NCBI GenBank assembly: GCA_030430565.1
Contig: JAUIKS010000008.1
Span: forward strand, 1 to 47,224
Source of the DNA: Polyangia bacterium
GTDB taxonomy: Bacteria > Myxococcota_A > Polyangia > Nannocystales > Nannocystaceae
Reading direction: 5' to 3'
Length of the DNA stretch: 47,224 nucleotides
Made by a program: the position numbers and the translations under genes. Below the pieces are notes generated by a model that saw only the letters and a list, made by a program, of their open reading frames with translations, was not told where the DNA came from and did not search any database. Of this stretch, positions 21,336 through 47,224 are shown piece after piece (the stretch's first letter is position 1; each line of letters begins with the position of its first letter).

Positions 21336-21404
21336 GGTCTTCGTGGCGACGCGGGCTCCGTGCATGCGCTCACGGTACTCGACGAGCGCGCCGCGGCGCC
21401 GTGA

Positions 21405-25414: not shown

Positions 25415-26992
25415 TCACGGCTGCGGCAGGCACTCGCCGTTACACACCCCGTCCTCGCCCCACTGCACGAACACCCCGTCAGCGCACAGCGACGGGATGA
25501 ACACGTCGATCGCCTCGACGTTCAGCGGGTTGTCGCGCAGGTCGAGCGCGAGGCACTCGGGCTCCAGCCACGACGGGTCCGCGAGCGGAGACAGGTCGCT
25601 GATCTGGTTGTTGCGTAGATTGGCGCCGCGCAGCGCGGGCATCGTCGCGAGCGCCGCGACCGAGGTGATGACGTTCGAGTGCGCGACGAGCGTCTCGAGC
25701 GGGAGGCCGGCGAGCGGCCCGAGGTCCTCAACCTGGTTGTCATCCATGCGCAGGGTCTCGAGCGAGCTCATCCCGCTGAGCGGCGCGAGATCGCTGATCT
25801 CGTTGTTGTCGATGTACAGGGACTCCATCGCGGTCATGCCCGCGAGCGGCGCGAGCTCAGAGACCTGATTCTCGCCGACGTTGAGCCGCACCATGCCGGT
25901 GAGCCCCGTGAGGCCGCTGAGATCCGCGATCGCGTTGTCGTCGAGGAGCAGCTCCGCGAGCTTCGTCTGCGGCCCGAGGTTGACCGAGCTGACGACGCCC
26001 CCCGCCGCGTGCAGCGTCTCCAGCGACTCGAGGCCGGCGAGGGGGTCGAGCGCGACCACCTCAACCGCGTCGATCCGCAGCGACTCGAGGGTGGCGACGC
26101 CCGCGAGCGGCGAGACGTCGGAGATCGGGTTCTCTGACAGCGAGAGGTGCTTGAGCGCGGGCAGCTCGGCCAGCGGGCTTAAGTCTGAGATGTGGTTATT
26201 CCACGCGAACAGCAGGGTCAGCGTCGGCACCTCGGCCAGCGGCGCGAGCGAGTCGACCTCGTTGTCGCCGATGAGCAAGATCGCGAGCGAGTCGAGCGTG
26301 GACACCACCTCGAGATCGGAGAGGCCGGTGTCGTGGAGGCCGAGCTCCCAGAGGTGATCGAGATCGCTCAACGGCTCGAGCCCGGACGCGCCGAACGGGT
26401 TGTGCCAGAGGTTGAGGCGCTCGAGCGAGGTGAGCCACTGCACCGGCGCGATGTCGCTGATGTCGCCGCTGACCACGTTGAGCTCGAGGAGCGACGAGGC
26501 GCACTCGATCCCGGCGAGCGAGAAGATCTTCTGGTCGGCGGCGCTGGACGCCGCGAGCGCGGTGAGGGTCAGGAGCTGAGCGGGCGAGATCGGTCCCTCG
26601 GGCAGCTCGAGCGCGTCCCGGACCTCGCTCTCGAGCCGCGGTGACTCGAACTCGATGACGTCGCACGCGGGCGGCTCGACGCCGGAGTCCGAGCCGGAGC
26701 CGTCGGTCGCCGCCTCTGTCTCGGTCGCGTCGCTGTCGCTGGTGTCGGGCTCGCCGGTCCCCGTCACCCCCGTCGTCCAGGAGCTCGCGCTCGCGCCGAC
26801 GGTCGTACCGTCGAGCGTGCTCGCGCTGTCGCCCGTTGCGCCCGTCGTCGTCGTCGTCGTCGCGTCCGCGGTCGACCCCCCGGTCGAACCATCGCTCGCG
26901 CTGCCTTGAGGCTCGCCGCCCGTGCAAGCGACCAGCCCGAGCACGAGTGACGCGAGGACTGCCTGAGTGCCGAACTTCATCGTCAACATCAT
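25415..26992 (-). CDS. Leucine-rich-repeat (internalin-like LRR) lipoprotein
   Basis: MMLTMKFGTQAVLASLVLGLVAC signal plus lipobox. T/S/G-rich linker. At least 12 units of about 22 residues of the type L..L..L..L.L..N.ISDLSPLA. C-terminal Cys-containing cap. The long R/P-rich extension to 27280 was discarded. Confidence 0.7.
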   Translation of the reverse strand: MMLTMKFGTQAVLASLVLGLVACTGGEPQGSASDGSTGGSTADATTTTTTGATGDSASTLDGTTVGASASSWTTGVTGTGEPDTSDSDATETEAATDGSGSDSGVEPPACDVIEFESPRLESEVRDALELPEGPISPAQLLTLTALAASSAADQKIFSLAGIECASSLLELNVVSGDISDIAPVQWLTSLERLNLWHNPFGASGLEPLSDLDHLWELGLHDTGLSDLEVVSTLDSLAILLIGDNEVDSLAPLAEVPTLTLLFAWNNHISDLSPLAELPALKHLSLSENPISDVSPLAGVATLESLRIDAVEVVALDPLAGLESLETLHAAGGVVSSVNLGPQTKLAELLLDDNAIADLSGLTGLTGMVRLNVGENQVSELAPLAGMTAMESLYIDNNEISDLAPLSGMSSLETLRMDDNQVEDLGPLAGLPLETLVAHSNVITSVAALATMPALRGANLRNNQISDLSPLADPSWLEPECLALDLRDNPLNVEAIDVFIPSLCADGVFVQWGEDGVCNGECLPQP

Positions 26993-27092
26993 AGGCGATG
27001 CGCCCCGAACACCGCGCGCCGTCTCTGCGCGCCCGCGCGACGCCGCCGCCGCCGCCGCCGCGCGGCCCCGACGAGCCCGACCTGGCGATCGA

Positions 27093-27668
27093 TCACGCGC
27101 TGTAGGCCAGCTGCTTGCGCGCGCGCGAGTACCAGCCCGCCTCGGCGGCGGGCAGGTACACGTTGCAGTCGTACATCTCCGAGGCGTAGACGTGAATCGT
27201 GACCGCCGAGCTGCGCTCGGAGACGTTGGCGATGGTGTGATACTCGTAGGGCGGCAGCAGGGCCCCCGACGAGCCGACACCGGCGAAGATCCGCCCGGCC
27301 TCGCGGAACCGACAGCGCTCGCCGCGGTCCTCGAGCAGGTCGTACTGCACCACCTCGATCGTCCCCTGCACGACCCCCTCGACGCACCACAGGCCGCAGT
27401 GATCGTGGATCGGCGTGCCCTGCTCCGGGCCCCAGGTCATCGCGATCACGGTGTAGCCGAGCGGCTCCGAGGCGTGGATCAGCCGGCGCGCGTAGCGACC
27501 GGGCGTCGGCGTCGTCAAGCACGCGGGGAGCTCGATCGCGCGGTCGCTGATCATTCGCGTGAGCCCGGCTCCGATCGCGCGGCTGATCGCCTCGGGCGAG
27601 GGCTGACGAACGGCGTCGTCGAGGGTGTCGACCAGCGCGCGGAGTCCGGGGAACTGCCTTGGCGTCAT
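27093..27668 (-). CDS. Cysteine dioxygenase type I-like cupin (thiol dioxygenase family)
   Basis: PIHDHCGLWCVEGVVQGTIEVVQYD (HxH cupin motif 1). SAVTIHVYASEM (HLYSPP-like block). About 190 aa. ATG at 27668 preceded by AAGG. The upstream part of ORF 27093..28244 was discarded. Confidence 0.7.
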   Translation of the reverse strand: MTPRQFPGLRALVDTLDDAVRQPSPEAISRAIGAGLTRMISDRAIELPACLTTPTPGRYARRLIHASEPLGYTVIAMTWGPEQGTPIHDHCGLWCVEGVVQGTIEVVQYDLLEDRGERCRFREAGRIFAGVGSSGALLPPYEYHTIANVSERSSAVTIHVYASEMYDCNVYLPAAEAGWYSRARKQLAYSA

Positions 27669-27852
27669 GATGAACCTTGGGACATGTGTCTTGGCGCGCA
27701 ATCGACCCCCGCGCGGTGGGAGCTCGAACTGTACGCCAATTTCCACGTACCGAACCGGCGAATCAACGTCCGCGGCGCGCCCGGGAGCGCGGTCAAGCGC
27801 ACACGCTCGCGCGATCGCGCAGCGAACGCGGCGGCCTGATAAAGTCGTCGCC

Positions 27853-29610
27853 ATGGCTTTCCATCCTCGAACCTCCGTGACGACCTGCCTCTGCGCGCTC
27901 GCGCTGTCGCTCCCTGGCTGCGGCGATAACACCGGCGGCAGCGACAGCACGGCGGGCAGCTCGGGGAACGCCGTGACGGTGAGCGCCACCGGGTCGATGA
28001 CGCAAGGGACGGTCGACGCGAGCGCGACGGCGGCGACGACCAACGGGCCCGGGGGCATGACCGACGGGTCATCCTCGGGCAGCGGCGGGACCACGACCGC
28101 CGGCACCACCGCGAGCACGGCCGGCTCGACCGCGTCGATGACGGGCAGCGAGACCACGTGGTTCCCCGAGACGACCGGCGACCCCACGACCGGGGCGAAC
28201 ACGACCGGTGAGCCCGTCGACGAGTGCAAGGTCAACGACGACATGGACGCCGTCGGCGCCTGCGAGGATGAGGCGCCGGCCGACAGCTTCGAGCCCGAGG
28301 TTCAGTGGCAGTGGACCGGCCCGCCCGGAGACGATCAGTCCGTCGTCACGCCGCTGATCGCCAACCTCACCGACGACGACGACAACGGCGAGATCGACCT
28401 CTGCGACATCCCGGACGTGGTCGTCGTCGGCGGCACGATCCTGGGCGGGAGCGCGCACATCTACGTGCTCGACGGCGCGACCGGCAGCCAGCACTTCCAG
28501 ATCCCGACGCCGGTCGACGTCACCGTCACGCCCGCGCTCGGCGACATCGACGGCGACGGCCTGCCCGAGATCGTCACGGCCCAGACCGGCGGCACGCTGA
28601 TCGCCTTCGAGCACGACGGCGCCATGAAGTGGACCAGCGACGTCGCCTGGCCGCAGTACTACATCGCCGCGATCGCGCTCGCCGACCTCGACAACGACGG
28701 CGACGTCGAGATCATCGCCGGCGACCGCTTCTACGACCACAACGGGATCCAGCAGCAGGTCTTCCCGTCGGGCGCGCCGCTGTACTCCGCGACGACCGCG
28801 GCCGACCTCGACGGCGACGGTGACCTCGAGGTCGTGATCGGCCACGCGGCCTATCACCACGACGGGACGCCCCTCTACCAGGCCAACGTGGTCCCCGGCT
28901 TCCCGCAGGTCGCCAACCTCGACGACGACCCGCAGCCCGAGGTCCTGATCACCAACACCAGCGGGCTGACGCTGCTCGAGCACGACGGCGCCGTGAAGTA
29001 CCAGGACCTGCGCCCGACGGGTGATCCGGCGGGCGGCAACAACTGGAACCGCCCGGCGACGATCCACGACTTCGACGGCGACGACGTCTCGGAGTACGCC
29101 TCGAGCTCGCGGGACAACTACTCGGTCTACGAGGCCGACGCCTCGATCCTCTGGTCGGCGTCCGTCGCCGACACCAGCGGGATCGCGGCCGGCACCGCCT
29201 TCGACTTCCTCGGCGACGGCGTGGCCGAGGCGATGTACGCCGACGAGCAGTTCATGTTCATCTTCGACGGCGACGGCCAGGTGCTGCTGCAGAACCAGCG
29301 CTCGAGCCTGACCGGCACCGAGTACCCCGTCGTCGTGGACGTCGACAACGACGGCTCCGCCGAGATCGTCGTGGTCTCGAACATCTACAACAACATGAAC
29401 TCTCCGACAGTCCAGGTGATCCGCGACAAAGAGGACCGCTGGATCCAGGCCCGCCGGATCTGGAACCAGCACGCCTACCACGTCACCAACGTGCGCGAGG
29501 ACGGGACCATCCCGCAGTTCGAGCCGCCGAGCTGGGAGCTGCTCAACACCTTCCGCACCAACGCGCAGATCGAGAGCGGCGGACTCTGCGAGCCGCCGAT
29601 CCCGGAGTAG
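27853..29610 (+). CDS. FG-GAP repeat (integrin-alpha-like beta-propeller) lipoprotein
   Basis: MAFHPRTSVTTCLCALALSLPGC signal plus lipobox. T/S/G-rich linker. Seven Ca-binding loops of the type DxDxDG: ADLDNDGDVEII, ADLDGDGDLEVV, HDFDGDDVSEYA, FDFLGDGVAEAM, VDVDNDGSAEIVV. The antisense ORF 28069..29922 was rejected. Confidence 0.75.
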   Translation: MAFHPRTSVTTCLCALALSLPGCGDNTGGSDSTAGSSGNAVTVSATGSMTQGTVDASATAATTNGPGGMTDGSSSGSGGTTTAGTTASTAGSTASMTGSETTWFPETTGDPTTGANTTGEPVDECKVNDDMDAVGACEDEAPADSFEPEVQWQWTGPPGDDQSVVTPLIANLTDDDDNGEIDLCDIPDVVVVGGTILGGSAHIYVLDGATGSQHFQIPTPVDVTVTPALGDIDGDGLPEIVTAQTGGTLIAFEHDGAMKWTSDVAWPQYYIAAIALADLDNDGDVEIIAGDRFYDHNGIQQQVFPSGAPLYSATTAADLDGDGDLEVVIGHAAYHHDGTPLYQANVVPGFPQVANLDDDPQPEVLITNTSGLTLLEHDGAVKYQDLRPTGDPAGGNNWNRPATIHDFDGDDVSEYASSSRDNYSVYEADASILWSASVADTSGIAAGTAFDFLGDGVAEAMYADEQFMFIFDGDGQVLLQNQRSSLTGTEYPVVVDVDNDGSAEIVVVSNIYNNMNSPTVQVIRDKEDRWIQARRIWNQHAYHVTNVREDGTIPQFEPPSWELLNTFRTNAQIESGGLCEPPIPE

Positions 29611-29947
29611 CGGCTCCCTATTTTCACGCGTGATCGCGCAGCTCCGCCGCCGCGAGGGGGTGATACCCTCGGGCGATGCTCTCCCCGCCGCGTGATTGGT
29701 CCGACGCCGCGGGCTGGAACGCGTATTACGAGGAGGAGGACCCGCGCCCCCTGCTCTCGTCCGCGCGCTACTGCGACGAGATGATCGCCTCGCGCGGTCG
29801 CGTGTGGTTCCCCGGCTGCGGCATGGACCCTGGCCCAGCGCTCGCCGTCTTCGTCCACAACACCGGCTAGCAGCAGCCAGCGGCGGAAGGAGCGAGCGAG
29901 GCGGCCCGTGGACTTTCGCCACGATCTGCGACGGCCGGCGCCGTCGC

Positions 29948-31879
29948 TCAGCCCGGCTCGAGGCCGTATGTCGAGCCGTCGACGTAGAGCTTGTCGAGCT
30001 CGTCCGCGAACTTCTTCTCGAGCGCGCCGCGCTTGACCTTCATCGTCGGCGTCAGCTCGCCCTGCTCCTGGCTGAAGTCGCGGGTGATCAAGATGAACCT
30101 TCGGACCTGCTCGACCCGCGCGAGCTCGCGGTTGCCCCGGGCGACCGAGCCCTGGATCCGCTGGCGGAACTCGGGGTGCTCGACAACGCGCGCCATGTCC
30201 TCGGCCAGCGCGTCGCTGCGCCCCGCCGGGTTGGCCATCAGCTCGCGCGTGTGCCGGTCGACCACCTCCTGCGTCACGAGCCCGCGGTCTCGCCCCCACT
30301 CGAGCGTCTCGATCGGCGAGGGCGCGACCACGGCCGAGATGAACTTGCGGCGGTCGCCGTGCGCGTGGACCTGGCTGATCAGCGGGTCCGAGTTCTTGAG
30401 CGCGTTCTCGATGTTCGCGGGCGCGAGGTTCTTGCCGCCAGCGGTGATGATGAGGTGCTTCTTGCGATCGGTGATCTTGAGGAAGCCGTCGGCGTCGATC
30501 TGGCCGATGTCGCCGGTGTGCAGCCAGCCGTCGATCACGGTCTTGTTGGTCGCCTCCTCGTTCTTGAGGTAGCCGACGAACACCCAGTCCGAGCGGATCA
30601 GGATCTCGCCGTCGTCGGCGATCCGGCACTCGACGCCCTCGATCGCCTTGCCGACGCTGCCGAGGCGGACCGCGCCGGGGGCGCTGCAGTGCGTCACGAC
30701 GGTCGCCTCGGTCATGCCGTAGACCTCGTAGATCGGCAGCCCCGCGGCCCAGAAGAACTCGAGGATGTCGTAGGCGATCGGCGCCGCGCCGGTGATGAAC
30801 ACGCGGACCCGCCCGCCGAAGGCCGCGCGGATCTTCTTGAACACCAGCGCGTCGGCGAGCTTGTGCTGGAGCTCGAGACGCAGCGGCACGCGCTCGTCCT
30901 TCAGCACGCGACGGATCCGCGCTCGCCCGACGCGCTCGGCCCAGCGAAACAAGCGCTGCACCGTCTTCGACTGGCGCTCGATCTCGCCGAAGATCTTGGC
31001 GTAGGCCTTCTCGAAGATCCGCGGGACCGAGCCGAATTGGGTGGGCTGGACCTCCTTGACCTCGTCGAGCACGGCGCCGATCGAGCTGGCGTAGGCCGCC
31101 GAGGTCCCCGCGTTGATCCGGCCGTAGAACGAGAGCACTCGCTCGGCGACGTGCGCCATGGGCAGAAACACCAGCGTCACGTCGCTCTCGCGGAACTCGA
31201 AGCTCCCCGCGCTCTGGCCGAGCACCGCGAGGATGTTGCGGTTGCTGATCATCGCGCCCTTGGGCGGGCCCGTGGTCCCCGAGGTGTAGACGAGGATCGC
31301 GATGTCCTCGGGCGCGCGCGCGGCCATGCGCGCCTCGAGCTCGTCGTCCCCCAGCGCCTCGGCGCGAAAGCGCGAGGGCGAGAGCATCCGCGCGTCGCGT
31401 GACGACGACCGCCGGTACAGCTCCTCCTCCCACGGCACGATGTGCTTTAGCGAGTCGAGCCCCTTGACCGCGTCGAGCACGCTCTCGAGCTCGTCGTGCC
31501 CGCTCACGAACACGACGCGGGCCTCGCTGTGCTCGATCAGGTAGCGGATCTGGTCGGGCGACTGCTTGGGGTAGATGCCCAGGCTCACGAGCCCCGCCAG
31601 CTGCGCGCCCATGTCGTAGTAGCACCACAGCGGCTGGGTCGGCCCGAGGATCGCGACGCGCTCGCCCGGCTCGAGCCCGAGCTGGACGAGACCGCCCGCG
31701 ACCTCGCGCGCGCTCGTGAAGAACTCGGCGTAGGTGATGGGCTGCCAGCTCCCACCGCGCTTGGTGAACATCGCGGGGTTCGGCCCGCTCTTCTGCGCGC
31801 GCCGGCGGAACATGTCAGCGAGCGTCCGCGACTCACGGGCGAGCTGGACGGCGGGGATGTCAGGTCCGGTTTTAAGCAT
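29948..31879 (-). CDS. Long-chain fatty-acid--CoA ligase (AMP-binding enzyme family, FadD-like)
   Basis: [15 protein letters not shown] (AMP-binding P-loop). [22 protein letters not shown]-terminal lysine motif. Confidence 0.9.
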
Positions 31880-32006
31880 CGCGTTCTTCGCCCTTCCGAA
31901 TCACTGTACCTAGCCGAGCGCTCCCGAGTCAGCTCCCAATCCGCGGAGCTCTACGCGCGGCCTCCCAAAATCGCGCGTGACGCCCAAGCGGCGACGAAAC
32001 TTGGTT

Positions 32007-33341
32007 CTACTCGATCCCGAAGATGCCGGTGAACTCGTCCTGGGCGTCGCGCAGCGCCGCGACCTCCGGGGCGTAGTCCGTCAGCACCATGAGGGCCTCC
32101 TCGAACGCCGGGATCACGCAGACGATGCGACCCTTCGCCACGCCGGGGAAGTCGAATCCGCGCCTGATCAATTCGAGGAGTCGCTCCTGCAGCGCGTTGT
32201 AGGGCGAGGTCGGGAACAGCGGCTCGCCCTCGAGCTCGCCCGAGACGAGCGCGCGCAGCCGGGCCGCGCCCTGAAGCGCGACCGCGCCGTGGCGCTCGAG
32301 CGCGGCGATCCGGTTCATGAAGGCGGCCCGATCGCTCTCCTCAATCGTGTCTCGAAAGACATATTGAAGCTCGAGCGTCGGCGGGCTGCAGCGCAGGCCG
32401 ACCGCGGCGAGGTGCGACGAGACGATGAGGCAGCGCTCGACCGCGTCCTGGTCCTCGCAGCGCGCGCTCGCCAGGCGCCGCGCCTCGAGCGGCCCGCGGC
32501 ACACGCCCGCGCACAGGCCGTCACACTCGCCGCGACACCGCTGCTCGCCGTCGCAGCCCGGCGCGTTCGCGTCGACCAGGCAGTCGCCGTAGCAGTCGCC
32601 GGCACAGAACTCCGGCGTCGGCAGCTCGCAGAGGCCGGCGCACGTGCCCTCGCACGCGCCCGCGCACGCCCCCTCCGCGTCGAAGCGGGTACAGACGCCC
32701 GCGCACTCGCCCCGGCATACGCCCTCGCAGGGCGCCGGCGCCGAGAACACGCAGCTGCCCGCGCACAGCCCCCCGCACGCGCCGGCCGAGTCGAGCTCGC
32801 AGGCGTCGTCGCCGGAGCACTCGCCCAGGCAGGCGCCCTCGCAGCGGCCGAGGCAGCGCGCGAACTCCGGCTCGTTTGGCGTCGCTACCCCGCACCCGCG
32901 CTCGAGCTCGCACAGGGTCTGGGCCGCGAACGCCCCGGCGGCGTCAGCGTGGCAGCGCGGGGGCGTGTAGAGCACCGCGAGCCCGCCCTCGACGTGCTCC
33001 GCGACGTCGGCGTCGATGACCTGCTCGAGCGCGCGGATCAAGTCTACGTCGACCGTCACGCGCTCGCCCCGGTCGAGCGCGCCGTAGGTCCACGCGAGCG
33101 CGAGCGCGCTGGCGTCGAACTCCTCGCGCGTCCTGTCGAACGCGCGGGCGAGCCGATGGGTCGCTAGGTAGTGATAGTCGACCCAGGGGACGACCGAGAT
33201 GTCGAGCTGGCCGATCTCGATACTCCCGCACGGCCCGCAGAATTGCTCACAACCCCCCACGAGCGCCGCGCCGGCGCCAAGGGTCATCCCGAAGCAGAGC
33301 CCGAGGACCCTCGATGCCGTCCGCCGCGTCACGCCTCGCAT
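32007..33341 (-). CDS. Lipoprotein with an extended Myxococcus-type cysteine-rich repeat array
   Basis: MRGVTRRTASRVLGLCFGMTLGAGAALVGGC lipobox. CEGACLGECSGDDACELDSAGACGGLCAGSCVF...CEGVCRGECAGVCTRFDAEGACAGACEGTCAGLCEL (CxGxC periodicity). Upstream R-rich extension discarded. Confidence 0.6.
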   Translation of the reverse strand: MRGVTRRTASRVLGLCFGMTLGAGAALVGGCEQFCGPCGSIEIGQLDISVVPWVDYHYLATHRLARAFDRTREEFDASALALAWTYGALDRGERVTVDVDLIRALEQVIDADVAEHVEGGLAVLYTPPRCHADAAGAFAAQTLCELERGCGVATPNEPEFARCLGRCEGACLGECSGDDACELDSAGACGGLCAGSCVFSAPAPCEGVCRGECAGVCTRFDAEGACAGACEGTCAGLCELPTPEFCAGDCYGDCLVDANAPGCDGEQRCRGECDGLCAGVCRGPLEARRLASARCEDQDAVERCLIVSSHLAAVGLRCSPPTLELQYVFRDTIEESDRAAFMNRIAALERHGAVALQGAARLRALVSGELEGEPLFPTSPYNALQERLLELIRRGFDFPGVAKGRIVCVIPAFEEALMVLTDYAPEVAALRDAQDEFTGIFGIE

Positions 33342-33361
33342 ACTACAACGGCCTCCGAGAG

Positions 33362-33898
33362 CTAGGGTTGAAAGGAGGGGCACGCGTCCAGCAGCGGCGG
33401 CACGAGCTCGGGGCAGAACTCGTCGGTCTCCTTCCACTCCTCGCAGCTGATCTCGCTGAGGCAGACGTAGAAGTCCTCGGCCGCCGCGATGCACTCCTCG
33501 CCGTCGACCGCCCGTAATTCGAAAAAGCCCATGCAGTACTCGAAGGCGTACTCCACGCCTGGGTAGCACTCGGCGTAGTTGTCCTCGTAGCGCTGGCACA
33601 GCTCCTCGATCGCGGCGTCGCCCTCGCTGTCGCTGTCGCTGTCACTGTCACTGTCACTGTCACCATCGCCGTCGCCGTCGCCGTCGCCACCACCCCCGGT
33701 CGCGCTCGTGGCGGTGTCACCCCCGGTCGCGCTCGAGGCCGCGCTGGTCGAGCTCGCGCCGAACGTCCCGGCGCCCGAGGCGTCGGCGCTCGCGCCCTCC
33801 GAGGTGGTCGCGCCGTCATCACCAGCGCACGCGGTGAGCACGACCGCCGCGGCGAGTCGCGCGACGATGACCGCGTAGTGAGGGTTGGAGCGCTGCAT
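33362..33898 (-). CDS. Small Cys-rich lipoprotein with a (DG)(DS)n linker
   Basis: Lipobox VVLTAC. GDGDGDGDGDSDSDSDSDSDSEGD encoded by (GTCRCY)n. C-terminal 70 aa with 8 Cys. 20 nt upstream of the 32007..33341 gene (operon-like). Confidence 0.55.
   Translation of the reverse strand: MQRSNPHYAVIVARLAAAVVLTACAGDDGATTSEGASADASGAGTFGASSTSAASSATGGDTATSATGGGGDGDGDGDGDSDSDSDSDSDSEGDAAIEELCQRYEDNYAECYPGVEYAFEYCMGFFELRAVDGEECIAAAEDFYVCLSEISCEEWKETDEFCPELVPPLLDACPSFQP
33624..33688. repeat. (GTCRCY)n hexanucleotide microsatellite encoding (DS)(DG) linker
   Basis: gtcgctgtcgctgtcactgtcactgtcactgtcaccatcgccgtcgccgtcgccgtcgcc. Confidence 0.85.
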
Positions 33899-33975
33899 GT
33901 ACCCGCTCCTATAGTGCCGTACGCTTCGAGTTCGGTCCCCTCGCCGCGCGCGTGCGCGCGCGCAAACTTGCGCGC

Positions 33976-35760
33976 TCAGCCCGGCGGCTCGTAGATCTGC
34001 TCCACGTCGGCGCCGCCGGGGAACGCGTAGGAGCCGGCGGAGCCGTAGCCGTAGGCGATCACGCCGAAGGGGGCGTCGCCCTTGATCGAGTGCGCGCCCT
34101 CGGAGACCAGGCAGCGCCGCGACTCGTAGTCCACGCCGTCGAGGTTGCCCGCGGGCGTCACCACGCAGTCGCCCGGCTCGACGCCGTCGATGGTGATCAC
34201 GTTGTCCGGCGGCGTCGAGAGCACGACGTAGTTGTCCTCCCAGCCCCAGAAGCCGGCGTCGGAGGGCGTGAGGATCCGGTACTCGTCGCGGAGCTGGTCG
34301 ACGGGCGGGAACACCGTGAGCGCCGGGTCGCCGGTGGAGGGCCCGTCGACGTACTCCTGGCTGATCAGCAGCTGCGCGATCATGTAGGGCTTGGTGCCGG
34401 AGGCGACGAAGTCGGCGTCGGCCCAGGTCGTGCGCACGTCGCCGGGCGTGAGCGTGAAGTTGTCGTAGGGCGCCGGGAGGTTGGTGGTCACCTGCGTGTC
34501 CTCGGCGACGCCGACGAAGCGGATCACGTCGGGCTCGTGGTAGCTGCCGGTCGAGCGGATCGGGCTGCGCGTGACGACGTAGTCGCTGCCGATCGACTCG
34601 ACCGGGAACAGCTGCTCCTCGAGGTGGTCGAGGCAGCAGGTGTCCTCGTCGGTCCAGCCGGGGTGCGTGGGGATCGAGAGCACGCCGCCCGGCGCGGACG
34701 TCGACTCGACGCCGGAGAACACCGCGACGGGCTTGGTCGAGCTAACCACGGTGCCGGTGAGGTCCGCGATCGTCGTCGGGTCGTCCTGGAAGGTGCCGTC
34801 GTCGGTCTCGAGGTTGAGCACGTCGAACGGCCCGAGCGTGACGACGATCTCCTCCCCGGGCCCGGCGGCGGGGATCGGCGGGTTGCCCTTGATCCGCCAG
34901 CTCGGCACCACCGTGACCGTGGTGTCGGGCTCGGTGCCAACAATGGTGACGGCGGAGCGATCGATGATGTTGAAGACCTTGACGGGGTGCCCCGCGGGCC
35001 AGCCGAGTACGCGGTAGAGCTTGCCCAGCGCCGGGGTCGGCAGCAGCAGCGAGGCGTCGTTGGAGAACGCGTTCTTGAACACGTTGAACTGGTAGACGAC
35101 GATCGGCGCGGTCGAGGTGATCCGGAACGCGCGCGACGACAGGCAGGTGCCCGGCGCGGTGTAGTCGTTGGGCATCGCGCCGCAGTCGAGCTCGCGGGTC
35201 GGCAGCTCGACCGGCAGCACGTCGTCGGGGCCGATGGTGAACTCGTCGACGACGACCAGGCTGAGCGGCTCACCGGGATCGGCGATGTTGATCTCGATCT
35301 TGATCGAGGTCTGCCCGTAGCCCGCGTTGGAGATGGCGACGCCCCAGGGCGCGCTCGCCGGGTCGTTAAAACCGTCCTGCTGGTCCATGTCGACGGCCCA
35401 GAACTCGCAGCCGAAGTTCGAGGGCTTGTCGGCCGCGTCGTCGCAGGCGACCACGTCGCCGTCTCCGTCGCCGTCTCCGTCGCCGTTGCCGACGTCGAAG
35501 ATCGGGTCATCGCCGTCGCCGTCTCCGTCGCCGTCGCCGCCCGTCGGCCCCGCAGAGGTCGAGCCCGTCGCGCCGGCGGTCGAGCTCGCGCTGGTGCTGG
35601 AGTCCGCGTTGGTGTTGGTGTTGGTGTTGGTGTTGGTCTCGGCGCCCGTCGGCGGCGGCGTGTCGGAGTCCGAGCCGGCGGGGTCGCCCCCGCCGCAGGC
35701 CAGCGGCGAGAAGACCAGGAACAACGCGGAGGGGAGCAGGAGCCGGCGAGTCAAATCCAT
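33976..35760 (-). CDS. Large secreted lipoprotein (594 aa) with (TN)n and (GD)n linkers and a beta-rich body
   Basis: MDLTRRLLLPSALFLVFSPLAC lipobox. TNTNTNTNTN and GDGDGDGDGD linkers. Many W/Y/F and VT-rich strands. The internal antisense ORFs are low-complexity. Confidence 0.65.
   Translation of the reverse strand: MDLTRRLLLPSALFLVFSPLACGGGDPAGSDSDTPPPTGAETNTNTNTNTNADSSTSASSTAGATGSTSAGPTGGDGDGDGDGDDPIFDVGNGDGDGDGDGDVVACDDAADKPSNFGCEFWAVDMDQQDGFNDPASAPWGVAISNAGYGQTSIKIEINIADPGEPLSLVVVDEFTIGPDDVLPVELPTRELDCGAMPNDYTAPGTCLSSRAFRITSTAPIVVYQFNVFKNAFSNDASLLLPTPALGKLYRVLGWPAGHPVKVFNIIDRSAVTIVGTEPDTTVTVVPSWRIKGNPPIPAAGPGEEIVVTLGPFDVLNLETDDGTFQDDPTTIADLTGTVVSSTKPVAVFSGVESTSAPGGVLSIPTHPGWTDEDTCCLDHLEEQLFPVESIGSDYVVTRSPIRSTGSYHEPDVIRFVGVAEDTQVTTNLPAPYDNFTLTPGDVRTTWADADFVASGTKPYMIAQLLISQEYVDGPSTGDPALTVFPPVDQLRDEYRILTPSDAGFWGWEDNYVVLSTPPDNVITIDGVEPGDCVVTPAGNLDGVDYESRRCLVSEGAHSIKGDAPFGVIAYGYGSAGSYAFPGGADVEQIYEPPG
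35455..35636. repeat. Three microsatellite blocks: (GTCKCC)n at ~35455..35488 and ~35508..35540, and (GTTGGT)n at ~35607..35636, encoding GD and TN linkers
   Basis: gtctccgtcgccgtctccgtcgcc ... gttggtgttggtgttggtgttggtgttggt. Confidence 0.85.
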
Positions 35761-35800
35761 GGCGACGAAGACCTCCTCGGGACCCTAACAAACAACGAGG

Positions 35801-39241: not shown

Positions 39242-39250
39242 GGATCGGCG

Positions 39251-40465
39251 ATGGCCTTCCGCCCGTTCACGCGTGAGCCCATCACCTTGCCGGGGCGCGC
39301 GGCGCTGCCCGCCGTCTCGCTCGCGCTCGTCGGAGACACCGGCGCGGGGAAGACGACCCTACTCGTGGCCCTGACCCACGCGCTCGCGCGCCGCGGCTGG
39401 GCGCCGCGCGCCGACTTTGACCAGCTCGACGTGACGCCCTACGAGCACGAGCGTGGGAGCTCGATCACGCTCTCGCACGTGCGCGCGCGCTCGGAGCGGC
39501 GCCGGCTCGTCTGGATCGACTGCCCCGGTCACTCCGCGTTAACGCGCAACGCCTACAACGGGATCGCGCAGGCGGACCAGGGCGTGCTCGTGGTCGCCGC
39601 CGATCAGGGCCTGATGCCGCAGTCGCGCGAGCACGTGCGGCTCGCGGCGCATCTCGGCGTCTCCGACTGGGTCGTGTACATCAGCAAGCTCGACGCCGCA
39701 GGCGTGAACGAGGAGCTGCTCGAGCTCTCGGAGCTCGAGGTCCGGGAGTTCTTTAACAGCCTCGAGCTCGAGGGCGACGGGCTGACGATCCTGCGCGGCG
39801 CGCCTCGGGCCGCGCTCGAGTCCGGGCTGAAGACGCACGCCGACTCGCTGTGGGCGCTGCTCGACGCCGTCGACTCGCTCCCGCTGCCGCGCCGCGATGT
39901 CGACGCGCCGCTGCTGATGCCCGTCGCCGACACCTTCTCGCGCTACCGCCCGCGCGCGGTGATCGTCACCGGAAAGCTGGCGCGCGGCGCGGTCGAGCTG
40001 GGCGAGTCGATCGAGCTGCTGGGCTACGGCGAGCGCTGGCGCGGGGAGGTCACGAGCCTGCACCGCGAGCGCGTGCCCGCGACGCGCGCGACGGCCGGTG
40101 ACCACGCGGGCCTGCTGCTCGAGGGGCGCACGGTCTGGAACACGCGGCGTGGGCACGTCGTGGCGGCGCCTGAGAGCGTGACCCCGCGCGACACGCTCCG
40201 CGCGGAGCTGCGGATGTTGACGACCGCCGAGGGCGGCTACGGCCACGCGGTGTTCCGCGGCTTTCGCCCGCAGCTGCACGTGCACACCGCCGACGTGGCG
40301 ACGCGCCTCGACGCCGCGCGCGACCGCGACTTCATGTTCTCGCCCGGCGAGCCCGCGCGCGTCGTGCTGGAGCTGCAGCACCCCATCGTGGCCCTCGCGG
40401 CGCAGCCGATCGTGCTGCGCGCGAGCCGAGCGACGGTCGCGCTCGGCGCGGTCGTCAACGACTAA
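39251..40465 (+). CDS. Diverged EF-Tu-like translational-GTPase paralog (three EF-Tu domains, non-canonical G1 and G4 motifs)
   Basis: Collinear with EF-Tu over the full length. GDTGAGKTTL vs GHVDHGKTTL. RADFDQLDVTPYEHERGSSITLSHV vs [24 protein letters not shown]. DCPGH conserved. VVYISKLD vs IVFLNKCD. EELLELSELEVREFF vs EELLELVEMEVRELL. LLMPVADTFS vs FLLPIEDVFS. GGYGHAVFRGFRPQLHVHTADV vs [22 protein letters not shown]. GAGGA 7 nt upstream of the ATG. Confidence 0.8.
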   Translation: MAFRPFTREPITLPGRAALPAVSLALVGDTGAGKTTLLVALTHALARRGWAPRADFDQLDVTPYEHERGSSITLSHVRARSERRRLVWIDCPGHSALTRNAYNGIAQADQGVLVVAADQGLMPQSREHVRLAAHLGVSDWVVYISKLDAAGVNEELLELSELEVREFFNSLELEGDGLTILRGAPRAALESGLKTHADSLWALLDAVDSLPLPRRDVDAPLLMPVADTFSRYRPRAVIVTGKLARGAVELGESIELLGYGERWRGEVTSLHRERVPATRATAGDHAGLLLEGRTVWNTRRGHVVAAPESVTPRDTLRAELRMLTTAEGGYGHAVFRGFRPQLHVHTADVATRLDAARDRDFMFSPGEPARVVLELQHPIVALAAQPIVLRASRATVALGAVVND

Positions 40466-40528
40466 ACCGCCTCCTCGCGCCCCTCGGCGCGGGACATCGA
40501 CGGCGCCGCGCCGTACACTCAGCGTGGA

Positions 40529-41749
40529 GTGTCGACCTTCACGCTCGCCTCGCTGGGCGCGTTCGCGCTCGTGGTGCTCAGCGCCGCGCTCTCGCGCGGG
40601 GTCGTCTTCGCGATCTTCGCGGCCATACTGCTGGGGGTCCACACCGCGGTCGCTACCGCGCTGTTCGGACAGGTCCCTGAAAACCTGTCTTTTGTGCCCT
40701 ACGCGCTACAGGCCGCCGTCTATCTGCACTTCGCCTCGCTCACGCGCCCGCGCATGCGCCCTTGGTGGTACCGCGCGCTGATCACCTACCCGGCGCTGTG
40801 GTTCGTGAGCGCGACCTTCCTGGCGTTCCCGTGGGCGATCGCGGCGGCCCTCGGCGCGCGCCCCTATCTCTGGTGGCTGCCCTTCGCGCTCGCGCTGCTG
40901 GGCCTGCTCGAGTCGCTGTGGACGCGCCCTGAGCGAGTGACGCTCCCGCTCGCGGGCGCGGACGCCGGGCGGTCGCTGCGCCGCGTCGAGCACGAGCTGT
41001 CGCGCCAGCGCCAGGCTGAGGCGCCCCGAGCCCCCGACGGCGCGCGACGTCTGCGGATCGTTCAGATCACGGATCCGCACCTCGGCCCGTTCATGTCCGC
41101 GCGCCGCCTGCACGCGATCTGCGAGCGCGCGGTGGCAGCGGATCCAGACCTCGTGCTGCTGACCGGCGACTTCTTCACGATGGAGTCCTCGTCGACGCCG
41201 GGCCTGCTGGCGCGATCGCTCGCGCCGCTGCGCGCGCTCGAGGGCCGCGTGTTCGCGTGCTTCGGCAACCACGATCACGAGGCGCCCAGCTTCGTGCGCG
41301 CCGGCCTGGACGAGGTGGGCGCGCGCCTGCTGGTCGACGAGGCGGCGGTGGTCGAGACGTCCGCGGGGCCGGTGCAGCTGCTCGGCTTTGACTTCGCGTG
41401 GCGCGACCGCGCGGCCCGGATGAAGGAGGTCTGCGCCCGCGCCCCGCGGCTCGCGGGCGCGCTGCGCCTCGCGCTGCTGCACGACCCGGGCGCGTTTCGA
41501 CACCTGCCCGAAGGGCAAGCTGACTTGGTGCTCTCGGGGCACACGCACGGCGGGCACGTCGGCCTCGTCAGCCTCGGGCTGCCGTGGACCTTCATCGGCG
41601 CCGTCTCGAGCGTGCCCGACTTCGGGCTGTGGGCGCGCGGTCGCGACCGGCTCTACGTGCACCGCGGCACAGGCCACTACGGCTACCCGCTCCGCCTCGG
41701 CGTCCCGGCCGAGGAGAGCGTGCTCGAGCTCGAGCTGCCCGCGGCCTGA
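40529..41749 (+). CDS. Membrane-anchored metallophosphoesterase (calcineurin-like phosphoesterase, YaeI/YkuE-like)
   Basis: About 130-aa N-terminal region with 4-5 TM helices. Then IVQITDPHLG, LTGDFF, CFGNHDHE, LSGHTHGGH phosphoesterase motifs. GTG start 64 nt after the EF-Tu-like gene. Confidence 0.75.
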   Translation: MSTFTLASLGAFALVVLSAALSRGVVFAIFAAILLGVHTAVATALFGQVPENLSFVPYALQAAVYLHFASLTRPRMRPWWYRALITYPALWFVSATFLAFPWAIAAALGARPYLWWLPFALALLGLLESLWTRPERVTLPLAGADAGRSLRRVEHELSRQRQAEAPRAPDGARRLRIVQITDPHLGPFMSARRLHAICERAVAADPDLVLLTGDFFTMESSSTPGLLARSLAPLRALEGRVFACFGNHDHEAPSFVRAGLDEVGARLLVDEAAVVETSAGPVQLLGFDFAWRDRAARMKEVCARAPRLAGALRLALLHDPGAFRHLPEGQADLVLSGHTHGGHVGLVSLGLPWTFIGAVSSVPDFGLWARGRDRLYVHRGTGHYGYPLRLGVPAEESVLELELPAA

Positions 41750-43003: not shown

Positions 43004-43093
43004 TTTACTGCGGGCGTGACCGACACGGAGCGCCCGCCCGAGGTCACCTCGTGGGCGCGAGAACTCGCGACCCGGGTACGTCGAGGAGCCACC

Positions 43094-43705
43094 ATGAAGC
43101 CGATACTCATCCTGTACGCGACCCGCGAGGGTCACACCAAGAAGGTCTGTGAGCACATCCGCGAGAGCCTGCGCGCCCGCGCCCACGCCGTCGAGCTGCG
43201 AGACGTCCGCGAGCTACCCCGCGAGTTCGCGCTCGATCGCTACGCGGCCGTGATCCTCGGCGCGTCGGTTCACCTCGGCCGCCACGAGGGCGCGATGGTC
43301 AAGTTCGTCACCCGCGCGCGCGCGCAGCTCGAGCCGCTCCCGACCGCGCTGCTCACCGTATGCCTGACGGAGGCGACGATCGAGGACGAGCGCAAGCCCG
43401 CGGAGGTCCGGCGGCAGGCGAGCGAGGACCTCGCGGGGATCATGGAGCGCTTCTACGAGACCACCGGGTGGCACCCCGACCGCGCCGCGCCGGTCGCGGG
43501 CGCGCTGATGTACCGCGAGTACGGCCTCGTCGTCCGTTGGATGATGCGACGGATCGCGCGCTCGACCAGCGGCGACACCGACACCTCGCGCAACCACGTC
43601 TACACCAACTGGGACGCGCTCGACCACTTCGTCGAGGACTTCATCCAGCGCTTCGTCCAGACCCTCGAGCCCGCGAGCGCGGCGAGCGTGAACACGGCGC
43701 CGTGA
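43094..43705 (+). CDS. hemG: Flavodoxin-like protoporphyrinogen IX dehydrogenase (menaquinone-dependent), HemG family
   Basis: MKPILILYATREGHTKKV flavodoxin start with GAGGAG at a 5-nt spacer. LMYREYGLVVRWMMRRIA and GDTDTSRNHVYTNWDALDHFVEDF match the HemG-specific insertion (G-ETDT-S-K-x-VYTDW). Confidence 0.75.
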   Translation: MKPILILYATREGHTKKVCEHIRESLRARAHAVELRDVRELPREFALDRYAAVILGASVHLGRHEGAMVKFVTRARAQLEPLPTALLTVCLTEATIEDERKPAEVRRQASEDLAGIMERFYETTGWHPDRAAPVAGALMYREYGLVVRWMMRRIARSTSGDTDTSRNHVYTNWDALDHFVEDFIQRFVQTLEPASAASVNTAP

Positions 43706-43927: not shown

Positions 43928-44752
43928 ATGTTCGCCTACAGCCACAATTTCGCCAGGGTCACCGCGCGGCGCGGAGGCCTCGTCTCGCTGAAGTTCGAGC
44001 TCGACCGGGCCCGCTGGCCGTGGCTCTCGCTGCCGCCGCAGCACCCGGTGCTGCTCGAGAAGTACCAGTACTTCGCGACCATGACCGCCGTGATGGCGCA
44101 GCCCGACTACGACCCCTCGCGCTCCACCGCGCTGACCCACTTCTCGTGGAGCTGCCCGCCGCTGCGCGACCCCGCCCACGCGACCGACGCGTGGTGCCAG
44201 CTCGAGGATGGCCGCTTCACCGGGGAGCTGCGCGCGGCCGACGCGGTCGTCGCTCGCTTCGCTGGCCTCGGGCACTACTTCGACGATCGCGACTTCGTCG
44301 CGTGGCGCGAGCGCGCCCGCGCCAAGGTCCTGGCGCGGGAGCCTGGGCGCCCGCTGGAGTACGCCTCGCCCGAGGCGGTCGGCCTCGACGCCGCGGGCGT
44401 GAGCTTCGTCGGTCCGCTCGCCCTGCGCGACGGCGTCCCCGCCGCGCCCGCGCTCGTGACCCGCGCCCGCGGCCTCGCGCCCGCGCACCCGTTTCACACG
44501 GGCAGCGGCGACCACGTCAACGCCGGGCACCTGTTCGACTGCGCGCTCCAGGCGGCGCACCTCGTGCTCGCGCGGCCGCTTACCTGCATCGGAGGACAGG
44601 CGTCGTTCACCCGCTTCGTCGAGCTCGACGCGCGCTTCGAGCTCCGCGTCACCCAGTCGACGCGCGAAGACCCCACCCCGCAGGCCCGCTTCGCGGTCAT
44701 CCAGCAGGGTCGAGACTGCGCCCAGCTCAGCCTGGGCTTCGCGCCGGGATAG
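43928..44752 (+). CDS. Double hotdog-fold protein resembling AfsA-type (gamma-butyrolactone/butenolide synthase family) domains
   Basis: Second half HPFHTGSGDHVNAGHLFDCALQAAHLVL...ASFTRFVELDARFELRV resembles the AfsA repeat (DHvPGMlllEAaRQa...f.rfvEld.p). The first half has a similar architecture. Start chosen at MFAYSHNF; the upstream part of ORF 43790.. is R/P-rich. Confidence 0.45.
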   Translation: MFAYSHNFARVTARRGGLVSLKFELDRARWPWLSLPPQHPVLLEKYQYFATMTAVMAQPDYDPSRSTALTHFSWSCPPLRDPAHATDAWCQLEDGRFTGELRAADAVVARFAGLGHYFDDRDFVAWRERARAKVLAREPGRPLEYASPEAVGLDAAGVSFVGPLALRDGVPAAPALVTRARGLAPAHPFHTGSGDHVNAGHLFDCALQAAHLVLARPLTCIGGQASFTRFVELDARFELRVTQSTREDPTPQARFAVIQQGRDCAQLSLGFAPG

Positions 44753-44777
44753 CAGCGAGCACGAGGATCCGCGCGAA

Positions 44778-45383
44778 ATGAATCACCCGAGGAACAACCA
44801 TCGGAACGCAGACCGCCGGAGCACAGGCGGGAGGACCACCCTGTGGCAGGGGACGTCAGTCGTGTTGCGGGCGATCACAGAGGAGGACATCCCTCGCTTT
44901 CTGTCTGATGGCGTCGTCGATGACATGCGACTCTACGGAGATGGATACGTCCCCTTCCCGGTGACCGACGACGTACGCCGCGAGCTGCTGCTGCGCAGCA
45001 CTCGTCCACCGGAGGGCGACGAGTGTTCGCTCGCGATCGAGGCGGCGGGTGAGCTCGTCGGCTCCATCAGCACCGACAGCTGCGATCCCCGGAGTGGTTC
45101 GCTCTGGTATGGCGTCGCCATATTTCGCGAGCATCGTCGCCGCGGCTACGCCATCGACGCGGTCACGGTCCTGCTGCGATACTTCTTTCAGGAGCGACGC
45201 TATCACCGAGCCGGCGCGCGGGTTTACAGCTTCAATGAGCCCTCGATCAACCTGCAGGCCCGTCTCGGGTTTCGTGAGGAGGGCCGGCTGCGTGACGCGG
45301 TCTTCACCATGGGCGCGCGCTTCGACGTGCTTCTGTACGGCATGACCTCGGCTGAGTTCGACGAGCGCTGGGGCTCGCGCTGA
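44778..45383 (+). CDS. GNAT-family N-acetyltransferase (RimJ/RimL-like)
   Basis: VVLRAITEEDIPRFL..., SLAIEAAGELVGSIS..., FREHRRRGYAIDAV..., NEPSINLQARLGFREEG. An alternative GTG start at 44862 would remove an odd 28-aa N-terminus. Confidence 0.7.
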   Translation: MNHPRNNHRNADRRSTGGRTTLWQGTSVVLRAITEEDIPRFLSDGVVDDMRLYGDGYVPFPVTDDVRRELLLRSTRPPEGDECSLAIEAAGELVGSISTDSCDPRSGSLWYGVAIFREHRRRGYAIDAVTVLLRYFFQERRYHRAGARVYSFNEPSINLQARLGFREEGRLRDAVFTMGARFDVLLYGMTSAEFDERWGSR

Positions 45384-45494
45384 GCGCCCTCCTATCGACC
45401 GAGCGCCCCCTCGACAAGCCGCGCGCGATCGCGTCGTGGCCGGAGCGCGTCCGCGGGCTCTTGGCGCGCGGGCAGCGGCGACAGAGGTCGATCG

Positions 45495-47224
45495 TCACGC
45501 GCTCGATGACCGCGGCGCGTCACGGTCGGCCCCGCGCGGCAGCCAGACCCGGAACTCGGATCCGCGGCCGGGCTCGCTCTCGACCTCGATGACCCCGCCC
45601 AGCAGCTCGCAGAAGCGACGCGCGACCGCCAGGCTCACGCCTGTCCCTTCGAACTGACGCGTCGACGAGTCGTCCTCCTGCGTGAACATCTCGAAGATCG
45701 AGCGCCGCGCGTCCGGGCCGATCCCGATCCCCGAGTCGATGACCTCAAAGCGCACGCCGGCGGTCCCCTCCCGGGCCTCGGCGGACACGCGGACTTGGAT
45801 CTCGCCGCCCGAGGTGAACCGGCAGGCGTTGTCGAGGAGCGTGGTGAGGCAGTAGCGCAGCATCCGCTCGTCGGTCTCGAGGGGGGCCAGCCCCGCCTCG
45901 CACTCGCAGCGGAGCGTGTTGCCGCCGGCGTCCGCGAGCGCCTCAAAGCGCGCGGAGAGCTCGCCGATCAACGGCTCGATCGTGACGGACGCGAGGCGCG
46001 CGGAGATCATGTCGGTCTCGATCCGGGTGAGCTCGAGGATCGAGCTGACGGATCGAAGCAGGCGCACCCCGGCGCTGTGGATGGACCGCAGATCGTGCTC
46101 GACCGAGTCGTAGTGCCCCTCGGCGATGCTGTCGGAGACGAGCTCCGTGTAGCCGAGGATCGCGTTGAGCGGCGTCCGCAGCTCGTGGCTCATGTTCAGG
46201 AGGAAACGGGTCTTGGCGCGATCGGCCGAGAGCGCGGCGAGTCGCGCCTCGTTGAGGTTCTTGTACAGCTGCGCGTTCGTCAGCGAGATCGCGACCTGAT
46301 TGCCGAGCTGCTTGATCAGCGTCAGGCGGCGCGGCGTGAAGGCGCCGCGCGAGAGCGCGTTCTCGAGGTACACGACGCACGCCAGCCGCCCCTGGTGCAG
46401 GATAGGCGTGCACAGCACCGACCGCGGGCGACGCTCGACGATGTACGGGTCGTCGCCGTGGACCGGATCCGCGGGCGCGTCGCTCAGCACGACATCCTCC
46501 TGCAGGCGCGCGGCGAATTGAACGAGGCGCGTCGGCGCCCCCTCAAATTCCTCGAGCGGGACGGCCAGGCCGATCCTCGTCTCGTCGCGCTCGACCGTTG
46601 TCTCGGCCGCCACGAACAGCTCGCCGTCGCGCGCGAGCAGGATGACCCCCCGCCGCGCGCCGGCGTTCTGCACCAGCAGCGTCGACAGCCGCATGAGCAG
46701 CTTGTCGAGCTCGAGCTCCCCCGAGATCGCCTGCGAGGCCCGCATGATCGTGTCGGCGTCGATCAGGAACGAGGAGGTCGCGCGGGTGACCGTGACGGAG
46801 TGGCCGCTCGCGCTCGTGCTCTCAGCGCGCGGCGAGGCCGGCATCAGCGTCCCGAACTCGCGCGCGAGGATCACGACTTTCTCGCGCGCGCCCCACCCTC
46901 GATACGCGTCGAGCGCGTCGGAGAGGTAGTGGCGAGCGAGCGACGCGTGGTCGTCCCCCCGCGTGAGCACGTACCGCAGCGCGCACTCGCAGGCGAGCGC
47001 CTCGACGTTGGGCGCGCTGTGGGTCCGCGCCAGCGTGATCGCCCGGTTGTAGTCCGTCAGCGCGTCGCTCCTCCCCGCGACCCTGCGCAGCTCGGCCCGC
47101 GCGAGCGCGGCGCGGGCGGCGTAGTTCGCCGGCGCGCTGGCGGCCCAGGTCTCGAGCTTCGCTAGCGCGCCTCGGATCGCCTTGACCTGTCCCCGACGCG
47201 CGCGCCCGCGGGAGCGCGCGGCCG
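45495..47224 (-). CDS. GAF-domain sensor histidine kinase, C-terminal part of a larger multidomain sensor (5'-partial; continues beyond the window end)
   Basis: H-box FLLNMSHELRTPLNAILGYTELV. HATPase GTGVSLAVARRFCELLGGVIEVESEPGRGSEFRV. GAF-like segment upstream. The frame stays open to nt 47224 (...TDYNRAITLARTHSAPNVEALACECALRY..ARHYLSDALDAYRGWGA), typical of the TPR/AAA linker of STK-AAA-GAF-HK fusion sensors. Confidence 0.75.
   Translation of the reverse strand, partial: AARSRGRARRGQVKAIRGALAKLETWAASAPANYAARAALARAELRRVAGRSDALTDYNRAITLARTHSAPNVEALACECALRYVLTRGDDHASLARHYLSDALDAYRGWGAREKVVILAREFGTLMPASPRAESTSASGHSVTVTRATSSFLIDADTIMRASQAISGELELDKLLMRLSTLLVQNAGARRGVILLARDGELFVAAETTVERDETRIGLAVPLEEFEGAPTRLVQFAARLQEDVVLSDAPADPVHGDDPYIVERRPRSVLCTPILHQGRLACVVYLENALSRGAFTPRRLTLIKQLGNQVAISLTNAQLYKNLNEARLAALSADRAKTRFLLNMSHELRTPLNAILGYTELVSDSIAEGHYDSVEHDLRSIHSAGVRLLRSVSSILELTRIETDMISARLASVTIEPLIGELSARFEALADAGGNTLRCECEAGLAPLETDERMLRYCLTTLLDNACRFTSGGEIQVRVSAEAREGTAGVRFEVIDSGIGIGPDARRSIFEMFTQEDDSSTRQFEGTGVSLAVARRFCELLGGVIEVESEPGRGSEFRVWLPRGADRDAPRSSSA

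Follow-up and report, generated by a model that had tools for sequence, protein, structure and literature searches.

A remote AfsA homologue with an altered active site in a Polyangia bacterium, and its likely incidental acetyltransferase and sensor kinase neighbours

AfsA-type enzymes constitute the entry point to the bacterial butyrolactone, butenolide and furan hormones; AfsA transfers a beta-ketoacyl group from an acyl carrier protein (ACP) to a hydroxyl of dihydroxyacetone phosphate (DHAP), and genome-mining tools recognise such enzymes by the Pfam family PF03756. In a Gram-negative bacterium, the superfamily is represented by StoB, an AfsA-like enzyme that acts as butenolide synthase in the styrolide cluster of Pseudomonas and is 29.5% identical to AfsA (PMC7154651). 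The literature searched contained no work on AfsA in myxobacteria and no AfsA structure. The 47,224-nucleotide stretch of Polyangia bacterium DNA analysed herein in its entirety (the window; assembly GCA_030430565.1, contig JAUIKS010000008.1) encodes at 43928-44752 a hotdog protein that an earlier reading of the sequence (the original prediction) took for an AfsA-like synthase of butenolides or gamma-butyrolactones (GBLs), and it placed this protein, a following GNAT acyltransferase and an opposing GAF-histidine kinase together as a possible acyl-signal synthesis locus beside its sensor. Our analysis suggested instead that the gene likely encodes an orphan, stand-alone acyl-thioester enzyme of a divergent AfsA clade with a non-canonical product, and that the GNAT and the kinase are incidental to it. 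Homology, fold and residue conservation are what the analysis shows; the mechanistic steps built on them are inferred.

Remote AfsA homology and fold of the hotdog protein

Both peptides on which the AfsA assignment had been based, DHVNAGHLFDCALQAAHLVL and FTRFVELDARFELRV, occur in the 274-residue hotdog protein. The correct start is ATG 43928, since the family alignment begins there and separate gene calling on a 7.2-kb contig of identical sequence returned the same 274-residue product.

Against the curated models, the protein gave no match to PF03756, which requires two AfsA hotdog repeats (gathering threshold, 24 bits), at either E ≤ 1 or E ≤ 10, and thus lies outside the family as delimited by Pfam; this was the outcome that the original prediction had itself named as refuting it. 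The ScbA/BarX model NF041195 aligned with the C-terminal half only (28.3 bits, E = 1e-6), far below the whole-protein cut-off of 200 bits set for this equivalog, which the control protein P0142 exceeded with 225.7 bits. About 55 close homologues, 40-54% identical, were collected; none of them carries a Pfam domain, and the named ones are all designated "hypothetical protein". Sub-threshold PF03756 matches were nonetheless present in 11 of the 55 members (best E = 4.5e-4). A search of 1.84 billion representative proteins with the family profile returned 128 matches at E ≤ 1e-3, the distant ones including the PF03756/NF041195-positive proteins P0123 (E = 1.9e-9), P0139, P0142 and P0149, and PF03756-positive proteins were found by the family hidden Markov model at E = 1.9e-9 to 1.9e-5. 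Alignment of the family with 17 NF041195-positive proteins by hhalign gave a probability of 99.5% (E = 1.1e-22, 183 columns) in local mode and 99.8% (302 columns) in global mode. Because both the profile search and the comparison with bona fide ScbA/BarX proteins were significant, we regard the homology as real: to judge by these alignments, the window protein is a true but remote homologue of AfsA/ScbA over most of its length, and so belongs to the AfsA superfamily. By the same comparisons, its family is a rare clade within this superfamily, previously unannotated and missed by the curated models.

The model built by AlphaFold2 with the family alignment showed a double hotdog composed of two hotdog halves (predicted local distance difference test score 94.6, predicted template modelling score 0.92), i.e., the fold of the AfsA type, and on the basis of this model the window protein and genuine AfsA are predicted to have one specific double-hotdog variant in common. 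The AfsA-like double hotdog claimed at the outset therefore stood as to homology (hhalign) and fold (AlphaFold2), while the protein fell below every curated family threshold. A Foldseek search of the PDB returned generic TesB/FatA double-hotdog matches with TM scores of about 0.5. The closest solved structural relative was mt-SAF38 (Tb927.5.1720; PDB 7pua chain Fi), which is the only solved structure with the AfsA-type fold. Sequence searches of the PDB with the protein itself, the family profile, AfsA profiles and two diplonemid relatives gave no meaningful match, and thus yielded neither a solved AfsA structure nor a sequence link to mt-SAF38.

The clade was found in marine Myxococcota, Planctomycetota and gammaproteobacteria of the Nevskiales/Salinisphaerales type, with relatives in diplonemids. 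The wider clade has in common a G[ST]GDHxN motif at the position of AfsA DHVPG, and includes a second bacterial subfamily (e.g., in an Aquisalinus metagenome-assembled genome, MAG) together with transcriptome proteins from the diplonemids Flectonema neradi and Diplonema japonicum and from Bolivina argentea. The eukaryotic proteins (P0112, P0128, P0119, P0126, P0131, P0134, P0140 and P0145) form the nearest out-group to the bacterial family and carry both G[ST]GDHxN and the five-residue insertion described below; the entries from the foraminifer B. argentea may be contaminants.

Active site and proposed reaction

The key residues of the hotdog protein were identified as H39, E44, Q47, R127, H187, H190, the T191-G194 insertion, D195-H196, N198, D204, Q208, E232 and Q259. 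Across the family, 25 columns were invariant, many of them polar and clustered at canonical hotdog active-site positions. Seven columns were invariant in the AfsA set (E85, Q89, D244, H245, Q257, E286 and Q313, P0142 numbering), and five of these were identical and also invariant in the window family, namely D195, H196, Q208, E232 and Q259. The other two, E85 and Q89, correspond to E44 (E in 43 and D in 10 of the 55 members) and Y48, respectively. The D195-H196 pair, which is the AfsA-invariant D-H pair, opens the C-terminal central helix and is directly preceded by an invariant five-residue insertion, H190-T-G-S-G194 (HTGSG). An acidic residue is kept on each central helix (E44 and D204), as is the linker arginine R127, and H39, H187 and N198 are further invariant residues of the family, whose N-terminal signature reads RWPWLxLPPxHPVLxEKYQYF.

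In a 2026 paper (PMC13454427), which cites Hsiao et al. 2007, the ScbA residues E78, R81, E240, R243 and R174 are given as essential for activity. Their counterparts in the window family were read from the AfsA alignment, in which the linker and the pair of ExxRQ motifs served as anchors in place of the ScbA sequence itself. On this mapping, E78 corresponds to E44, E240 to D204 (55 of 55 members) and R174 to R127 (again 55 of 55), whereas R81 is replaced by Q47 (Q in 52 of 55) and R243 by L207 (L, M or F in 54 of 55). The AfsA/ScbA catalytic set was thus retained in its two acids and the linker arginine and lost in both active-site arginines.

These features are compatible with the following scheme. 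The hotdog protein would act as a soluble, stand-alone enzyme that probably binds an acyl or beta-ketoacyl thioester of ACP or coenzyme A (CoA), as AfsA does, and the H196/E44 site, possibly with a second pseudo-symmetric H39/D204 site, would transfer the acyl group onto an acceptor hydroxyl or onto water. Because both ScbA arginines are replaced and the HTGSG loop is inserted, the acceptor is unlikely to be bound in the manner in which AfsA is thought to bind DHAP, and given such a difference in acceptor binding, the product would probably not be a canonical GBL or butenolide.

The alternative that retains the AfsA ancestry without the transferase chemistry takes the protein for a hotdog hydrolase or dehydratase, either an acyl-CoA/ACP thioesterase or a FabZ/polyketide synthase (PKS) dehydratase-like enzyme, in lipid or acyl-CoA housekeeping. 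The C-terminal helix carries a D204-x-x-x-Q208 stretch similar to the DxxxQ/H motif seen in PKS dehydratases, the potential His/acid dyads H39-D204 and H196-E44 recall FabZ, and acyl-thioester-handling genes (TesB-like, PlsC, AMP-ligases, ECH) adjoin the homologues in several loci. However, on reading the sequence around H39, the dehydratase motif HxxxGxxxxP was absent, and none of the 55 members matched Pfam FabA/FabZ/MaoC or acyl-ACP thioesterase models, a weak 4HBT_3 match being seen in one of the 55 (E = 0.018); the window protein thus lies outside the FabZ/FabA/MaoC dehydratases. Furthermore, both sequence and fold were clearly closest to AfsA, and the gene context was too variable to place the protein in any pathway. 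We therefore consider this alternative unlikely.

Gene neighbourhood in the window and across the family

All three genes of the original prediction were present as placed, as judged by the open reading frames (ORFs) and, for the GNAT and the kinase, by Pfam (Table 1). The GNAT was confirmed by PF13302 (Acetyltransf_3; 63.2 bits, cut-off 25.4) and PF00583 (Acetyltransf_1; 35.1 bits, cut-off 20.7), with only weak RimJ/RimL/AAC(6')-like matches in NCBIfam. It lies on the same strand as the hotdog gene at a spacing of 25 nt, with a ribosome-binding site of its own, GAGGA, 10 nt before its ATG. Its G+C content is 64.7%, and 78.7% at third codon positions (GC3) compared with 92-95% GC3 in every neighbouring gene, in a window of about 72% G+C. 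Its atypical GC3 marks the GNAT as a gene probably acquired recently, by insertion between the hotdog and kinase genes, rather than a conserved partner. The opposing gene, convergent with the GNAT on the minus strand and running off the window, was likewise verified as a GAF-sensor histidine kinase, with GAF (51.7 bits), HisKA (57.0 bits) and HATPase_c (95.0 bits) all above their cut-offs. Its best homologues were partial sensor kinases of Nannocystis/Nannocystaceae (51-57% identity), which also points to a Nannocystaceae-like myxobacterium as the origin of the window. No Pfam or database match was obtained for the 170 residues that precede the GAF domain, and searches for the N-terminus beyond the window, where kinase/AAA/TPR modules had been proposed, gave partial homologues or nothing.

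A scan of species-representative genomes yielded 21 homologous loci, all in MAGs, from a Nannocystaceae MAG and other Myxococcota, a Planctomycetota MAG, Oceanococcus, Salinisphaerales, Panacagrimonas and other gammaproteobacteria; with further gene-called contigs, 26 other genomes and contigs were examined in total. The GNAT, kinase, HemG-like, unknown and metallophosphoesterase proteins of the window were used as tblastn queries against the 21 loci. The GNAT was found at none of the 21, and in none of the 26 other loci does a GNAT stand beside the hotdog gene. The kinase query returned generic histidine-kinase similarity only, and neither the HemG-like gene nor any other synteny was detected. 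All-against-all clustering of the flanking ORFs revealed no family common to the loci besides the hotdog gene itself, blocks in common being limited to closely related Oceanococcus genomes. The adjacency of the hotdog gene to the GNAT and the GAF-kinase, whose conservation had been proposed as a check, was thus seen in this genome only.

The flanks of several loci were gene-called and annotated with Pfam. At the closest homologue, from Nannocystaceae (54% identity), a PlsC-type acyltransferase gene comes 40 nt downstream, and a TesB-like thioesterase gene lies 10 nt downstream of a Salinisphaerales homologue. Others adjoin a sodium-solute symporter (SSF), a TonB receptor or Baeyer-Villiger monooxygenases, or have AMP-dependent ligases on either side, and among the remaining neighbours are amidohydrolases, flagellar genes, a Ser/Thr kinase and a cNMP-GAF-PAS cyclase. 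A mild enrichment of acyl-thioester-handling enzymes near the homologues was apparent, which fits a hotdog enzyme; no partner was fixed. In locus L011 (8086-14218; a Salinisphaeraceae MAG), acyl-CoA ligase paralogues of the AMP-dependent type flank the hotdog homologue, the upstream one being co-oriented with it and the downstream one lying on the other strand; no other locus gave as strong a single hint of an acyl-activation context. An apparent fusion in locus L012 (2755-7107), where a frame of 1451 codons runs into the hotdog homologue, was rejected as a high-GC artefact, since the frame overlaps two genuine Baeyer-Villiger monooxygenase genes in a genome of 74% GC.

A GBL/butenolide signalling cassette comprises a synthase with a TetR receptor and/or a BprA-type reductase. 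No TetR-type receptor, BprA-like reductase, ACP or ketosynthase gene was present beside any homologue scanned, and the 47-kb window contained no TetR, ACP, ketosynthase or short-chain dehydrogenase/reductase gene and no biosynthetic cluster; no such cassette was thus recognised.

The proposal that the protein is a canonical AfsA-type butenolide/GBL synthase, whose product the GNAT modifies and the convergent GAF-histidine kinase senses in a self-contained quorum-signal locus, has to be judged against these data. The homology to AfsA/ScbA is real, the protein retains the catalytic D-H pair, both acids and the linker arginine, and the GNAT follows closely on the same strand. The kinase contains a GAF domain, a type of domain that commonly binds small ligands, and in locus L008 a GAF-containing cyclase is convergent with the hotdog homologue. 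On the other hand, the protein has no PF03756 match and reaches 28 of the 200 bits of NF041195, both arginines reported as essential in ScbA are replaced, and no TetR receptor or BprA-like reductase accompanies it in the flanks scanned; the identification as a butenolide or GBL synthase was accordingly not borne out. As for the partners, the GNAT is missing from all 21 loci and foreign in composition, GNATs of the Acetyltransf_3 type are typically N-acetyltransferases that act on proteins or amines, not lactone-tailoring enzymes, and the kinases near other members are generic matches. Because the adjacency was seen in this genome only and the host lineage has genomes dense in signalling genes, a signal synthase with its sensor finds no support here: the GNAT and the GAF-histidine kinase are genome-specific, incidental neighbours of the hotdog gene, neither a tailoring enzyme nor a cognate sensor. 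We thus judge the signal-locus proposal very improbable and advise against further use of the specific claim that a signal synthase stands beside its own sensor in this myxobacterium. A non-catalytic role in binding or as a scaffold, like that of the ribosome-assembly factor mt-SAF38, is very unlikely in view of the enzyme-typical pattern of invariant polar residues (H187, H190, D195, H196, N198, D204, Q208, E232 and Q259) and of the bacterial genes, which have no consistent placement by ribosome or RNA genes.

Several points weigh against the preferred assignment as an orphan enzyme of a divergent AfsA clade with a non-canonical product. The second arginine was also absent in 3 of the 17 bona fide AfsA proteins, and D replaced E at the second acid in 4 of the 17; because some genuine AfsA proteins deviate at these positions too, the argument from arginine loss is somewhat weakened. 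For all members, the substrate, the acceptor and even the class of reaction, whether transfer, hydrolysis or dehydration, are predictions. In addition, the co-oriented downstream gene encodes a user of acyl-CoA or acyl-ACP in three divergent loci (GNAT, PlsC and TesB-like), and the hotdog gene may thus be loosely tied in function to acyl-handling partners that vary between loci. Finally, since the GNAT follows the hotdog gene on the same strand after 25 nt with no detectable terminator, the two may be co-transcribed in this organism, though the pairing is not evolutionarily conserved.

Promoter and terminator scans and RNA folding of the intergenic regions revealed nothing exceeding shuffled controls, with neither a terminator nor an unusual RNA structure between the genes. 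As to the rest of the window, the HemG-like flavodoxin gene, 222 nt upstream of the hotdog gene, adjoined no hotdog homologue at the 21 loci by either tblastn or ORF clustering, and is context outside the hotdog unit. At 39242-41749, a gene for an EF-Tu-like GTPase paralogue (GTP_EFTU with domains 2 and 3, about 404 residues) is directly followed by one for a membrane-anchored metallophosphoesterase, an unusual pairing found on the identical Logan contig L022 too. The stretch 20547-35784 contains a run of large proteins of secreted or surface type, namely the IgGFc-binding-domain, FG-GAP repeat, LRR and PSD/DUF1592-DUF1588 proteins of Table 1, and in addition a BtpA-family gene.

Table 1. Positions of annotated features in the window
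Feature	Position	Strand	Remarks
AfsA-like double-hotdog gene, stand-alone, 274 residues	43928-44752	+	ATG 43928, stop ending 44752
GNAT N-acetyltransferase, 201 residues (Acetyltransf_3, RimJ/RimL-like)	44778-45383	+	Pfam
GAF-HisKA-HATPase_c sensor histidine kinase, C-terminal 575 residues	45495-47224, continuing past the window	-	Pfam
HemG-like flavodoxin (Flavodoxin_5)	43016-43705	+	Pfam 117 bits; NCBIfam NF008316 118 bits against a cut-off of 142
IgGFc-binding-domain protein	33976-35784		
AMP-binding ligase	29948-31900		12 kb from the hotdog gene
FG-GAP repeat protein	27607-29610		
LRR protein	25415-27436		
PSD/DUF1592-DUF1588 "planctomycete cytochrome-like" protein	23308-25209		
BtpA-family gene	20547-21404		

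Comparison with known systems

The small clade described herein is invisible to the current AfsA models and combines an altered active site with the lack of a receptor context. Because of these two features, its members probably perform related acyl-transfer chemistry on a different acceptor, and enzyme discovery thereby gains a concrete, if modest, target. As a tentative extension that we hold to be possible but doubtful, the G[ST]GDHxN clade could represent a new class of AfsA-superfamily enzymes that esterify an acyl or beta-ketoacyl thioester to a non-DHAP acceptor and thereby provide marine Myxococcota, Planctomycetota and Nevskiales with a lipid or other acyl-ester metabolite not described so far, a class that would also have been taken up by Euglenozoa and have given rise there to mt-SAF38.

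Among the known systems, the window protein resembles AfsA, ScbA and BarX (PF03756, NF041195) in the double-hotdog architecture and the linker helix, and has in common with them the D-H pair, one acid on each central helix, Q257, E286 (of the FVELD motif), Q313 and the linker arginine. It differs from them in a strongly diverged N-terminal half, in DHVNA at the place of AfsA DHVPG with the HTGSG insertion preceding the D-H pair, in the replacement of ScbA R81 by Q and R243 by L, and in a gene context without TetR receptor or reductase; AfsA, ScbA and BarX belong to actinomycetes, whereas the window clade inhabits marine Myxococcota, Planctomycetota and Gammaproteobacteria. StoB is likewise an AfsA-superfamily enzyme of a Gram-negative bacterium (PMC7154651), but its gene belongs to a dedicated cluster that also encodes an AMP-ligase, ACP-like proteins and reductases, and the window gene has no such cluster around it. 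The dehydratase and product-template domains of PKSs and the acyl-ACP or TesB thioesterases matched the structure of the window protein much more weakly than the AfsA-type fold did, and the protein differs from them in having no Pfam match and no HxxxGxxxxP motif, and in standing alone outside any synthase.

The closest relative in structure, mt-SAF38, is an assembly factor of the mitoribosomal small subunit of Trypanosoma brucei, and has been described as a thioesterase/dehydratase-like double hotdog and nothing more specific (PMC8784144; bioRxiv 10.1101/2024.12.18.629302). At 475 residues, it is known solely as a ribosome-bound factor and is 13% identical to the window protein, with no match at the sequence level. 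Transcriptomes of the diplonemids, the sister group, encode sequence relatives of the window clade that bear G[ST]GDHxN and are at most putative orthologues of mt-SAF38. The AfsA-type fold of mt-SAF38 hints at the evolutionary origin of this factor, and its structure offers a possible template for AfsA proteins as a whole.

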